DNA of 4,551 nucleotides from a virus (taxonomy: Duplodnaviria; Heunggongvirae; Uroviricota; Caudoviricetes), in the IMG/VR virus record IMGVR_UViG_2706794684_000014; one strand, 5' to 3'. Both the position numbers and the translations under genes were made by a program. A model generated the notes under the pieces. The model searched no databases. It saw only the letters and a list, made by a program, of their open reading frames with translations, and was not told the DNA's origin. Of the stretch, positions 1 to 4,551 are shown piece after piece (the first letter of the stretch is position 1; each line of letters begins with the position of its first letter).

Positions 1-1
1 G

Positions 2-610
2 GTCGGTGGAGAACGTTATTTTTTCTGTAATGAGCAGAACGAAAAAGGTGAGCCGGTCACCTGGCAGGGGCGACAGTATCAGCCGTATCCCATTCAGGGG
101 AGTGGTTTTGAACTGAATGGCAAAGGCACCAGTACGCGCCCCACGCTGATGGTTTCTAACCTGTACGGTATGGTCACCGGGATGGCGGAAGATCTACAGA
201 GTCTGGTCGGCGGAACGGTGGTCCGGCGTAAGGTTTACGCCCGTTTTCTGGATGCGGTGAACTTCGTCAACGGAAACAGTGACGCCGATCCGGAGCAGGA
301 GGTGATCAGCCGCTGGCGCATTGAGCAGTGCAGCGAACTGAGCGCGGTGAGTGCCTCTTTTGTACTGTCCACGCCGACGGAAACAGATGGCGCTGTTTTT
401 CCGGGACGTATCATGCTGGCCAACACCTGCACCTGGACCTATCGCGGCGATGAGTGCGGTTATCACGGTCCGGCGGTCGCGGATGAATATGACCAGCCAA
501 CGTCCGACATCACGAAGGATAAATGCAGCAAATGCCTGAGTGGCTGTAAGTTTCCGCATAACGTCGGCAACTTTGGCGGCTTCCTTTCCATTAACAAACT
601 TTCGCAGTAA
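2..610 (+). CDS. L: Tail tip assembly protein L (lambda gpL-like), 5'-partial; the gene begins upstream of the window
   Basis: The frame is open from base 2 with no stop until TAA at 608-610, so the listed ORF 149..610 is only the part after an internal Met. The translation (GGERYFFCNEQNEKGEPVTWQGRQYQPYPIQGSGFELNGKG...FGGFLSINKLSQ) matches my recollection of lambda gpL almost residue for residue. A C-terminal cysteine cluster is present (Cys codons at 428, 455, 524, 533, 545). Identification is by recall, not search. Confidence 0.93.
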   Translation, partial: VGGERYFFCNEQNEKGEPVTWQGRQYQPYPIQGSGFELNGKGTSTRPTLMVSNLYGMVTGMAEDLQSLVGGTVVRRKVYARFLDAVNFVNGNSDADPEQEVISRWRIEQCSELSAVSASFVLSTPTETDGAVFPGRIMLANTCTWTYRGDECGYHGPAVADEYDQPTSDITKDKCSKCLSGCKFPHNVGNFGGFLSINKLSQ

Positions 611-615
611 ATCCC

Positions 616-1278
616 ATGACAGAGACAGAATCAGCGATTCTGGCGCACGCCCGGCGATGTGCTCCAGCGGAGTCGTGCGGCTTCGTGGTAAGAACGCCGG
701 AGGGGGAAAGATATTTCCCCTGCGTGAATATCTCCGGTGAGCCGGAGGCGTATTTCCGTATGTCGCCGGAAGACTGGCTGCAGGCAGAGATGCAGGGTGA
801 TTTGCCGTGGTGGCTGGTCTGCCGGGGGGCGATTCACAAGTTCCGCTGTGTGCCACATCTTACCGGGCGGCGCTTTGAGCACGGGGTGACGGACTGTTAC
901 ACGCTGTTCCGGGATGCTTACCATCTGGCGGGGATTGAGATGCCGGATTTTCATCGTGAGGATGACTGGTGGCGTCACGGTCAGAATCTCTATCTGGATA
1001 ATCTGGAGGCCACAGGGCTGTATCAGGTGCCGTTGTCAGCGGCGCAGCCGGGCGATGTGCTGCTGTGCTGCTTTGGTTCATCGGTGCCGAATCATGCCGC
1101 CATTTACTGTGGTGACGGCGAGCTGCTGCACCATATTCCTGAACAACTGAGCAAACGAGAGAGGTACACCGACAAATGGCAGCGACGCACACACTCCCTC
1201 TGGCGTCACCGGGCATGGCACGCATCTGCCTTTACGGGGATTTGCAACGATTTGGCCGCCGCATCGACCTTCGTGTGA
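616..1278 (+). CDS. K: Tail tip assembly protein K (lambda gpK-like); NlpC/P60 peptidase domain intact, N-terminal JAB/MPN-like domain apparently truncated
   Basis: A 220-aa ORF starts 5 nt after the L stop. An in-frame internal ATG at 760 (MSPEDWLQ...) corresponds to the classically annotated lambda K start. The NlpC/P60 signature is present: Cys in GVTDCYTLF (codon 895-897), His in VPNHAAIY (1093-1095) and HH in ELLHHIPE. There is no obvious Shine-Dalgarno before 616, so translational coupling to L is possible. The 3' end overlaps I by 103 nt in another frame, as in lambda. Confidence 0.88.
   Translation: MTETESAILAHARRCAPAESCGFVVRTPEGERYFPCVNISGEPEAYFRMSPEDWLQAEMQGDLPWWLVCRGAIHKFRCVPHLTGRRFEHGVTDCYTLFRDAYHLAGIEMPDFHREDDWWRHGQNLYLDNLEATGLYQVPLSAAQPGDVLLCCFGSSVPNHAAIYCGDGELLHHIPEQLSKRERYTDKWQRRTHSLWRHRAWHASAFTGICNDLAAASTFV
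1158..1164 (+). promoter_or_regulatory. Putative ribosome-binding site for I
   Basis: Purine-rich AGAGAGG lies 11 nt upstream of the I start codon at 1176, inside the K coding region. Confidence 0.45.
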
Positions 1279-1847
1279 AAACGGGTGCCGAAGCCATCCG
1301 GGCGATGGCCACACAGCTCCCTGCGTTTCGTCAGAAGCTGAGCGACGGCTGGTATCAGGTGCGTATTGCCGGGCAGGATGTTAGCACGTCCGGATTAACG
1401 GCACAGTTACATGAGGCTCTGCCTGACGGCGCTGTGATTCATATTGTTCCCAGAGTCGCCGGGGCCAAGTCAGGTGGTGTATTCCAGATTGTCCTGGGAG
1501 CAGCCGCCATTGCCGGATCATTCTTTACCGCCGGAGCCACCCTTGCAGCATGGGGGGCTGCCATTGGTGCCGGTGGTATGACCGGCATTCTGTTTTCTCT
1601 CGGTGCCAGTATGGTGCTCGGCGGTGTGGCTCAGATGCTGGCACCGAAAGCCAGAACTCCCCGCACACAGACAACGGATAACGGTAAGCAGAACACCTAT
1701 TTCTCCTCACTGGATAACATGGTTGCCCAGGGCAATGTTATGCCTGTTCTGTATGGTGAAATGCGCGTGGGGTCACGTGTGGTATCTCAGGAGATCAGCA
1801 CGGCAGACGAAGGGGACGGTGGTCAGGTTGTGGTGATTGGTCGCTGA
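1176..1847 (+). CDS. I: Tail tip assembly protein I (lambda gpI-like)
   Basis: A 223-aa ORF, the same length as lambda gpI, with a sequence (MAATHTLPLASPGMARICLYGDLQRFGRRIDLRVKTGAEAIR...GGQVVVIGR) matching my recollection of gpI. An AGAGAGG Shine-Dalgarno-like motif lies at about 1158-1164, 11 nt upstream of the ATG. The start overlaps the 3' end of K. Confidence 0.92.
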   Translation: MAATHTLPLASPGMARICLYGDLQRFGRRIDLRVKTGAEAIRAMATQLPAFRQKLSDGWYQVRIAGQDVSTSGLTAQLHEALPDGAVIHIVPRVAGAKSGGVFQIVLGAAAIAGSFFTAGATLAAWGAAIGAGGMTGILFSLGASMVLGGVAQMLAPKARTPRTQTTDNGKQNTYFSSLDNMVAQGNVMPVLYGEMRVGSRVVSQEISTADEGDGGQVVVIGR

Positions 1848-1895
1848 TGCAAAATGTTTTATGTGAAATCGCCTCCGGGCGGTTTTATCGTTTAT

Positions 1896-1899
1896 GGAG
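1896..1899 (+). promoter_or_regulatory. Putative ribosome-binding site for J
   Basis: GGAG lies 8 nt upstream of the J ATG at 1908, within the 60-nt I-J spacer. Confidence 0.55.
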
Positions 1900-1907
1900 C
1901 ATGACGA

Positions 1908-3345
1908 ATGGGTAAAGGCAGCAGTAAGGGGCATACCCCGCGCGAAGCGAAGGACAACCTGAAGTCCACGCAGCTGCTGAGTGTGATCGATGCCATCAGC
2001 GAAGGGCCGGTTGAAGGTCCGGTGGATGGATTAAAAAGCGTGCTGCTGAACAGTACGCCGGTGCTGGACAGTGAGGGGAATACCAACATCTCCGGCGTCA
2101 CGGTGGTGTTCCGGGCAGGTGAGCAGGAGCAGTCACCGCCGGAGGGATTTGAATCCTCCGGCTCCGAGACGGTGCTGGGTACGGAAGTGAAATATGACAC
2201 GCCGATCACCCGGACCATCACGTCGGCAAACATTGACCGACTGCGTTTTACCTTCGGTGTACAGGCACTGGTGGAAACCACCTCAAAGGGAGACAGGAAT
2301 CCGTCTGAAGTTCGCCTGCTGGTTCAGATACAGCGTAACGGTGGCTGGGTGACGGAAAAAGACATCACCATTAAGGGCAAAACCACCTCGCAGTATCTGG
2401 CCTCGGTGGTGGTGGATAACCTGCCGCCGCGCCCGTTTAATATCCGGATGCGCAGAATGACGCCGGACAGCACCACAGACCAGCTGCAGAACAAAACGCT
2501 CTGGTCGTCATACACCGAAATCATCGATGTGAAACAGTGCTACCCGAACACGGCACTGGTCGGCGTACAGGTGGATTCGGAGCAGTTCGGCAGCCAGCAG
2601 GTGAGCCGTAATTATCATCTTCGCGGGCGCATTCTGCAGGTGCCGTCGAACTATAATCCGCAGACGCGGCAATACAGCGGTATCTGGGACGGAACGTTAA
2701 AACCGGCATACAGCAACAACATGGCCTGGTGTCTGTGGGATATGCTGACCCATCCGCGCTATGGCATGGGGAAACGTCTTGGTGCGGCAGATGTGGATAA
2801 ATGGGCGCTGTATGTCATCGGCCAGTACTGTGACCAGTCGGTGCCGGACGGCTTTGGCAGCACGGAGCCGCGCATCACCTGTAATGCCTGGCTGACCACA
2901 CAGCGCAAGGCGTGGGATGTGCTCAGTGATTTCTGCTCGGCGATGCGCTGTATGCCGGTATGGAACGGGCAGACGCTGACGTTCGTGCAGGACCGACAGT
3001 CGGATAAGGTGTGGGCCTATAACCGCAGTAATGTGGTGATGCCGGATGATGGCGCGCCGTTCCGCTACAGTTTCAGCGCCCTGAAAGACCGCCATAATGC
3101 CGTTGAGGTGAACTGGATTGACCCGGATAACGGCTGGGAGACGGCGACAGAGCTTGTGGAGGATACGCAGGCCATTGTCCGTTACGGTCGTAACGTCACG
3201 AAGATGGATGCCTTTGGCTGTACCAGCCGGGGGCAGGCACACCGCGCCGGGCTGTGGCTGATTAAAACGGAACTGCTGGAGACGCAGACCGTGGATTTCA
3301 GCGTGGGTGCTGAAGGGCTTCGTCATGTACCGGGCGATGTCATTG
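1908..3345 (+). CDS. J: Tail tip host-specificity protein J (lambda gpJ-like), N-terminal segment, interrupted by the N gap at 3346
   Basis: A long ORF with strong coding character starts MGKGSSKGHTPREAKDNLKSTQLLSVIDAISEGPVEGPVDGLKSVLLNSTPVLD..., which matches my recollection of the lambda gpJ N-terminus. The I-J spacing of 60 nt is the same as in lambda. The track's apparent stop at 3608 is an artefact of reading through the N run. Confidence 0.9.
3259..3345 (+). repeat. Direct repeat, copy 1: 87 nt immediately 5' of the gap, about 92% identical to 3602..3688
   Basis: By direct comparison, tgattaaaacGgaactgctggaGacgcagaccgtggaTttcagcgtgggTgcTgaagggcttcgTcatgtAccgggcgatgtcattg differs from the post-gap copy at 7 positions. 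All are third-codon-position changes, and both copies encode [29 protein letters not shown]. Confidence 0.9.
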
Positions 3346-3601
3346 NNNNNNNNNNNNNNNNNNNNNNNNNNNNNNNNNNNNNNNNNNNNNNNNNNNNNNN
3401 NNNNNNNNNNNNNNNNNNNNNNNNNNNNNNNNNNNNNNNNNNNNNNNNNNNNNNNNNNNNNNNNNNNNNNNNNNNNNNNNNNNNNNNNNNNNNNNNNNNN
3501 NNNNNNNNNNNNNNNNNNNNNNNNNNNNNNNNNNNNNNNNNNNNNNNNNNNNNNNNNNNNNNNNNNNNNNNNNNNNNNNNNNNNNNNNNNNNNNNNNNNN
3601 N
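3346..3601. other. Run of 256 N: assembly or scaffold gap, not biological sequence
   Basis: Uninterrupted n characters. The flanks overlap each other (see repeat feature), and the gap length shifts the J reading frame from window frame 0 to frame 1. Confidence 0.95.
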
Positions 3602-3688
3602 TGATTAAAACAGAACTGCTGGAAACGCAGACCGTGGACTTCAGCGTGGGCGCAGAAGGGCTTCGCCATGTGCCGGGCGATGTCATTG
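3602..3688 (+). repeat. Direct repeat, copy 2: 87 nt immediately 3' of the gap
   Basis: See copy 1. It encodes the same peptide in the post-gap J frame. Confidence 0.9.
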
Positions 3689-4551
3689 AAATCTGTGATG
3701 ATGACTATGCCGGTATCAGCACCGGCGGGCGCGTGCTGGCGGTAAACAGCCAGACCCGGACGCTGACGCTCGACCGTGAAATCACGCTGCCATCCTCCGG
3801 TACCATGCTGATAAGCCTGGTTGACGGAAGTGGCAATCCGGTCAGCGTGGAGGTTCAGTCCGTCACCGACGGCGTGAAGGTGAAAGTGAGCCGTGTTCCT
3901 GACGGCGTTGCTGAATACAGCGTGTGGGGGCTGAAGCTGCCGACGTTGCGCCAGCGCCTGTTCCGCTGTGTGAGTATCCGTGAGAACGATGACGGCACGT
4001 ATGCCATCACTGCCGTGCAGCATGTACCGGAAAAAGAAGCCATCGTGGATAACGGGGCGCACTTTGACGGCGACCAGAGCGGCACGGTGAATGGTGTCAC
4101 GCCGCCAGCGGTGCAGCACCTGACTGCCGAAGTCACCGCAGACAGCGGGGAATATCAGGTGCTGGCGCGCTGGGACACGCCGAAGGTGGTGAAGGGGGTG
4201 AGCTTTATGCTTCGCCTGACCGTGGCAGCGGATGACGGCAGTGAGCGGCTGGTCAGCACGGCCCGGACGACGGAAACCACATACCGCTTCACGCAACTGG
4301 CGCTGGGACGGTACACGCTGACAGTCCGGGCGGTAAATGCCTGGGGACAGCAGGGCGATCCGGCGTCGGTATCGTTCAGGATTGCCGCACCGGTAGCACC
4401 GTCGCGGATTGAGCTGACGCCGGGCTATTTTCAGATAACTGCCACGCCGCATCTTGCGGTTTATGATCCGACGGTACAGTTTGAGTTCTGGTTCTCGGAA
4501 ACGCGGATTACCGATATCAGGCAGGTTGAAACCACAGCCCGCTACCTTGGC
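3604..4551 (+). CDS. J: Tail tip host-specificity protein J (lambda gpJ-like), continuation after the gap, 3'-partial; runs off the window end
   Basis: The frame (codons from 3604) is open to the window end. The translation [66 protein letters not shown]...[32 protein letters not shown]... matches my recollection of the central region of lambda gpJ, including a fibronectin-III-like stretch. It is missing from the ORF track only because it has no stop in the window and its first in-frame Met lies well inside the segment. Confidence 0.88.

Follow-up and report, generated by a model that had tools for sequence, protein, structure and literature searches.

A short Shigella sonnei contig carries a K gene from which 81 nt have been lost in frame, and the lost segment encoded every zinc ligand of the N-terminal JAB/MPN protease domain of this lambda-type tail protein. 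The C-terminal NlpC/P60 peptidase domain keeps its active-site residues, and the full-length parent of the shortened protein is a common Shigella allele. We regard the allele as a private, probably inactivating deletion, or else an assembly error, and not as a new kind of K. A real and recent slippage-type deletion in the K gene of a resident prophage, which abolishes the zinc site and probably leaves the JAB half without function, is the explanation that we favour and judge to be probable.

The K gene lies in a lambda-type tail cluster

The window, that is, the whole stretch of DNA that was analysed (4,551 bases), is the complete contig CWUB01000225.1 of the Shigella sonnei draft assembly GCA_001247645.1, and the K protein of this contig is recorded as WP_052977309.1, 'C40 family peptidase [Shigella sonnei]'. 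Its genes are ordered L, K, I and J, which is part of a lambda-type tail cluster; the flanks of K, which lies upstream of J, carry the Pfam domains Phage_tail_L and Lambda_tail_I and J domains.

1..610, + strand: 3′ part of tail gene L, 202 codons, truncated by the contig end (Pfam Phage_tail_L, 2.8e-69; gene call)
616..1278, + strand: K homologue, 220 aa, with an 81-nt in-frame deletion relative to the 247-aa parent
1176..1847, + strand: tail gene I, 223 aa, whose start overlaps the 3′ end of K (Pfam Lambda_tail_I, 3.4e-27)
1464..1478, + strand: AKSGG, the terminus of the ubiquitin-like domain of gpI (residues 97-101)
1908..3345, + strand: 5′ part of J, 479 codons, open, matching the parent prophage identically
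3346..3601, no strand: run of 256 Ns, a false scaffold gap
3602..4551, + strand: middle part of J, a different allele, which shares 94.3% identity with the parent prophage and 99.8% with other E. coli prophages

The K genes of lambda and phage 434, whose product is the tail tip assembly protein K (TAPK, annotated as 'C40 family peptidase'), likewise lie between L and I, with I overlapping their 3′ end. The K lesion is the one sign of decay in a tail cluster that is otherwise intact in the window.

Iyer, Burroughs and Aravind (2006; PMC1779556) described K as a JAB domain joined to an NlpC/P60 domain and gpI as carrying a ubiquitin-like domain that ends in a conserved Gly, and predicted that the JAB domain of K cleaves gpI at this Gly. 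EXnHS/THX7SXXD is the zinc-binding JAMM motif, and the paper that defines it places lambda K among the JAMM proteins of unknown function (PMC300881). The gpK protein is needed for tail assembly and is absent from virions (PMC12617516, PMC10721106). The mature tip structure resolves only residues 135-223 of gpI (PMC10721106), an observation that agrees with loss of the ubiquitin-like part, and with its predicted cleavage by K, but does not prove it. In the gpI of the window, a Gly/Ala-rich hydrophobic linker follows AKSGG.

A single 81-nt deletion joins two short direct repeats

Protein alignment over all 220 residues gave 96% identity between the window K and the 247-aa K of phage 434 outside one gap of 27 residues (EIVALVHSHPGGLPWLSETDRRLQVQS). 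At the DNA level there is likewise a single gap, and the lost segment (EIVALVHSHPGGLPWLSEADRRLQVQS) measures exactly 81 nt, or 27 codons, corresponding to residues 62-88 of the 247-aa protein; the same loss was seen against phage 434, E. coli ET210 and four Shigella-type loci. From the L stop to the I start the window measures 566 nt, which is 81 nt less than the 647 nt of phage 434. When the 663-nt K gene was used as the query, every best match, both among phage records and among 5,426 complete E. coli genomes, spanned 744 nt in two pieces. An earlier note, made from the sequence alone, had proposed an in-frame deletion of about 27 codons (about 81 nt) with a junction near 796-801. The alignment to phage 434 K, a lambda-type K that does hold the extra 27-aa HxH...SxxD segment, and the L-to-I distance proved this size to be exact, and the junction was found where it had been proposed, within 796/797-800/801.

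797..800, + strand: deletion junction, with GTGA common to both breakpoints (alignment to full-length genes)

The two breakpoints in the parent, GATGCAGGGTGA (followed by GATT) and GGTGCAGAGTGA (followed by TTTG), lie 81 nt apart, whereas the window reads GATGCAGGGTGATTTG, with GAGATGCAGGGTGATTTGCCGTGG as the junction-spanning sequence. Since both breakpoints end in GTGA, the junction can be placed anywhere within 797-800. The flanks of the breakpoints form an imperfect direct repeat, TGCAGgGTGA / TGCAGaGTGA, matching at 10 of 11 positions, and judged from sequence such an arrangement fits slippage during replication or a deletion mediated by microhomology.

The deletion removes the zinc site and leaves the NlpC/P60 site

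The two domains of the shortened protein were located as follows.

625..786, + strand: JAB/MPN remnant, residues 4-57, comprising helix 1, two strands and helix 2, with Glu19 kept and none of the zinc ligands (Prok-JAB, regular-expression search, model)
865..1206, + strand: NlpC/P60 (C40) peptidase domain (Pfam NLPC_P60, PF00877, 4.4e-13, profile positions 1-105 of 105)

The full set of JAMM zinc ligands, namely His68, His70, Ser78 and Asp81, lay in the deleted segment. A regular-expression search of the entire K ORF found neither HxH nor HxH..SxxD, in agreement with the earlier statement that the 220-aa ORF lacks an H-x-H...S-x-x-D motif; Glu19, the general base, is present in AESCGF (nt 670-672). 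The Prok-JAB profile matched full-length K with 53.2 bits over profile positions 3-103, and shortened K with 25.5 bits over positions 4-57 of 114, a marginal match that lies wholly upstream of the metal ligands, so that no JAB match with intact ligands was obtained for this ORF. The JAB/MPN domain of the shortened K is incomplete. Because all zinc ligands are deleted, the definition of the JAMM motif predicts that the JAB half would neither bind zinc nor cleave as a protease.

The NLPC_P60 match reached 49.6 bits against a curated cut-off of 23, and the residues Cys94 (895-897), His160 (1093-1095) and His172/His173 (1129-1134) are all kept. Pfam and the comparison with full-length K uphold the view of K as a JAB/MPN and NlpC/P60 fusion from which that note had started, and its reading that the Glu context, the Cys at 895-897 and the His at 1093-1095 survive held at the level of single residues. 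The NlpC/P60 domain, its catalytic residues and the N-terminal Glu context are therefore the same in the window K as in the K of lambda and phage 434, but the latter has residues 62-88 with the whole HxH...SxxD site and the window K lacks them.

In the model of full-length K (pLDDT 80.8), residues 62-88 form a strand (62-69), a loop and a helix (79-88), and His68, His70, Ser78 and Asp81 sit on these elements. The N-terminal domain of this model matches P. furiosus JAMM1 and the C-terminal domain matches NlpC/P60 peptidases of the MepS/Spr type; for K itself, a structure search found no solved structure, only the distant MPN NMR structure 2kks. In the AlphaFold model of the shortened K the confidence falls from 80.8 to 68.9 overall and from ~90 to 60-80 in the N-terminal domain, which is a hint at most, AlphaFold being no folding test for deletion mutants. 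Full-length K thus shares with the JAMM/MPN+ proteases (AfJAMM, P. furiosus JAMM1, Rpn11 and Csn5) both the fold, as matched to PfJAMM1, and the E...HxH...SxxD motif (PMC300881), whereas the window K retains the Glu alone of that motif. Catalytically dead MPN- domains also lack the ligands, but the window K has in addition lost the structural elements that carry them.

Both active sites of K are conserved across the family

Conservation was assessed in an alignment of 108 sequences, consisting of the query P0002 together with 107 sequences that represent clusters at 50% identity, 215-285 aa in length and mostly 35-60% identical to K. The residues were kept as follows.

Glu19: 101 of 108
His68: 104 of 108
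His70: 102 of 108
Asp81: 104 of 108
NlpC/P60 Cys: 102 of 108
NlpC/P60 His: 103 of 108

The JAMM ligands E/H/H/D are conserved in about 100 of the 108 representatives, and the exceptions in this alignment are mostly fused or partial entries. As both active sites are under equal constraint, loss of the JAB core departs from the norm of the family.

This degree of conservation argues against a working JAB-less K, in which the zinc-protease core would be dispensable, or its loss advantageous, and the NlpC/P60 domain together with the N-terminal scaffold would support tails. We consider that explanation improbable. It draws on the fact that the deletion is in frame and leaves intact the NlpC/P60 triad as well as gene I and as much of J as the contig shows, and on the phage K versions with NlpC/P60 alone that were listed by Iyer et al. 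(PMC1779556); the same authors suggested that these versions are probably degenerate and typical of prophages in the integrated state. Like the window K, such NlpC/P60-only TAPK proteins adjoin a ubiquitin-like gpI and have no working JAB, but in them the whole domain is absent, whereas the window K keeps half of the JAB domain and lost 27 codons in a single recent deletion. The loss of a core strand and a helix, which lowers the model confidence across the N-terminal domain, also speaks against a functional protein.

The parent is a common Shigella allele and the shortened K is private

The exact 220-aa K was found on one contig only in a collection of ~15 billion proteins. The parent was rebuilt in silico by inserting the 27 residues of the closest E. 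coli allele into the 220-aa protein, and the resulting 247-aa protein exists exactly as P0282, on at least 1000 contigs, 5-Mb genomes among them, with the source names Shigella sonnei and Shigella ('MULTISPECIES: C40 family peptidase [Shigella]'). All 220 shared residues of P0282 are identical to the window K. Four parent loci (L007-L010), located via the gpI of the window, all encode P0282, with the K of L007 at 9261-10004; L007-L009 lie in complete genomes that, by the source names of P0282, are presumably Shigella. Positions 1-3345 of the window differ from these four loci only by the 81-nt deletion, by two synonymous SNPs, which together with the deletion make up all differences from the P0282 gene itself, and by a 3-nt change in L, the sole departure from the parent in the flanking L, I and 5′ J DNA. 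Tail gene I is identical in sequence to that of the parent. Apart from the deletion, the private differences are:

555..557, + strand: 3-nt change in L, CGC against GCA in the parent (TTTCCGCATAAC against TTTCGCAATAAC; global alignment to L007)
1071, + strand: synonymous SNP in K, TGC in the window against TGT in the common Shigella allele
1167, + strand: synonymous SNP in K, TAC in the window against TAT in the common Shigella allele

The change at 555-557 (KFRNN to KFPHN) lies just past the C-terminal Cys cluster of gpL and, from its sequence, looks like a compensated +1/-1 indel pair; a 48-mer with this L variant was absent from the 5,426 complete E. coli genomes. A 50-mer across the K junction, built so that neither arm alone seeds a match, was absent from the same genomes, which hold ~14,700 K copies, and from 50,697 phage records, and a junction 24-mer was absent from GTDB genomes, IMG/VR and JGI metagenomes. 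The earlier suggestion of a natural JAB-less variant, taken as a lineage, is not supported by a singleton allele whose exact parent is a common Shigella allele and whose missing ligands are conserved in the family. That note had named two further possibilities without choosing between them, a decaying tail gene in a prophage and an assembly error, and each of these is still plausible.

All four private differences fall within 555-1167, and positions 1168-3345 are identical to the parent. Either a patch brought in by recombination or a consensus mixed from paralogous prophage copies could account for this clustering.

The contig is chimeric, and the junction argues for a real mutation

The flanks of the N-run, 3259-3345 and 3602-3688, repeat one and the same J segment at 92% identity and map to overlapping reference positions. 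Since they duplicate one segment, the 256-N gap is false, and since J to the right of it is a different allele, the scaffold is chimeric and joins two prophages. The strain must accordingly possess two or more lambdoid tail clusters. The contig thereby illustrates the chimeric J genes and false gaps that arise in scaffolded short-read drafts of multi-prophage genomes.

Such an assembly raises the question of whether the isolate carries a normal 247-aa K and the 81-nt gap arose from short-read assembly, scaffolding or gap closing among repeated lambdoid prophages, which we regard as the main rival explanation, a serious possibility if a doubtful one. The shortened K is a singleton among ~15 billion proteins with its parent on at least 1000 contigs; the 4.5-kb contig contains a false gap and two joined J alleles; the private L change 240 nt upstream of the deletion is indel-like and is accompanied by two clustered SNPs; and a mixed consensus of paralogous copies would account for the four private differences within 555-1167. 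The junction itself points the other way, as it has no more than 4 nt of exact homology (10 of 11 positions if one mismatch is allowed). For k-mer assemblers and overlap-based gap closers, a homology of 4-10 nt is too short to join two sequences unless reads hold the junction. Similar deletions at other short repeats, in independent assemblies made with other pipelines, weigh against an artefact as well. A real mutation is favoured by the short homology shared by the breakpoints and by the independent deletions of this kind in other assemblies.

Further JAB-core deletions, where inspected, also lie at short repeats

By protein search and alignment, other near-identical K proteins of 204-219 aa were found to carry different in-frame deletions of the JAB core. 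At least five further in-frame deletions of the JAMM core, with junctions all different, are present in other E. coli/Shigella draft assemblies.

P0021, P0023, P0024, P0026 and P0034: 87-nt deletion at an exact 9-nt repeat, GGCTGCAGG
P0029: 84-nt deletion at GCTGGTC
P0033: another 84-nt deletion
P0066: a larger deletion of the JAB core
P0092: partial 178-aa entry from Shigella sonnei, with yet another JAB-core deletion
Loci with parallel K deletions: L004, 10001-10657; L005, 5795-6454; L006, 6001-6660

The parallel deletions that were inspected as DNA, or that could be read from the protein, are located at short repeats. The P0023 form lies within a complete-looking lambda-like head and tail cluster and occurs in four assemblies, and among the parallel deletions some are on contigs of 200-630 kb and were seen in several isolates. 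The 87-nt junction (218-aa form) was absent from the complete E. coli genomes, where only partial 28-nt matches to full-length variants were obtained. The distinct junctions of these parallel deletions indicate that such events occur naturally. The search for them used the deleted protein as the query and is thus biased towards similar matches.

Several independent in-frame core deletions, one of them in a complete-looking morphogenesis cluster and present in four assemblies, might be taken to favour a functional JAB-less K. However, the parallel cases come from that biased search, neither the 81-nt nor the 87-nt junction occurs in any of the ~14,700 K copies of the complete E. coli genomes, and deletions also occur in the NlpC/P60 half, as is expected of neutral decay seen through a protein search. 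A broader proposition, namely that the JAMM core is dispensable for lambda-type tails and that the repeats make its in-frame excision recurrent, tolerated and possibly selected, seems to us very unlikely. If it were true, the natural alleles would be working JAB-less K proteins, and the predicted cleavage of gpI by the JAB domain would not be essential. Degenerate JAB-less prophage K proteins were already noted in 2006, and the window allele is a mutant of a well-known gene and not new in kind. A repeat-bracketed JAB core that has been excised in frame several times independently nevertheless provides natural variants for testing the predicted protease role of K in gpI processing and tail assembly.

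Losses of 21-63 residues, likewise in frame, were observed in or beside the NlpC/P60 half in P0059, P0073, P0093, P0101, P0113, P0116 and P0119, which belong to other prophages; P0101 is on 6 contigs, one of them of 3.9 Mb. An enrichment of deletions in the JAB core over the rest of K was considered and rejected, as deletions of the NlpC/P60 half were also found and the query had itself been the deleted form.

Proposed origin and consequence of the deletion

We propose that the K of the window belongs to a lambda-like prophage common in Shigella sonnei and would act as a non-structural tail-tip assembly protein. In one isolate, 81 bp were probably lost between short imperfect direct repeats, through replication slippage or a microhomology-mediated deletion. 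The event would have taken one beta-strand, a loop and one helix, while keeping the reading frame, the NlpC/P60 site and the start of the overlapping gene I. As the JAB domain of K is predicted to process the ubiquitin-like gpI, its loss may affect gpI processing and tail assembly. Because the JAB site is conserved in the family, gpI processing is its predicted role and K is needed for tails, the allele is most likely a recent loss-of-function lesion. Such a lesion may be tolerated, since a prophage would not be under selection in the lysogen, and the second lambdoid tail cluster of the same strain could possibly supply K.

Annotation effects and split genes in related entries

The 199-aa 'NlpC-only' K entries P0074 and P0076 were examined as candidate JAB-less proteins and rejected, as they are called from an internal Met49 and HSH...SEAD is present in them. 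Thousands of database K entries start at Met49 (MSPEDWL...) and leave the upstream Glu outside the annotated protein; calling the gene in this way gives the false impression of a 'JAB-less' K. In L008, a complete-genome relative, the tape-measure gene (5671-8231) and J (10634-14130) are each broken into two ORFs, which reflects either prophage decay in that strain or long-read indel errors.
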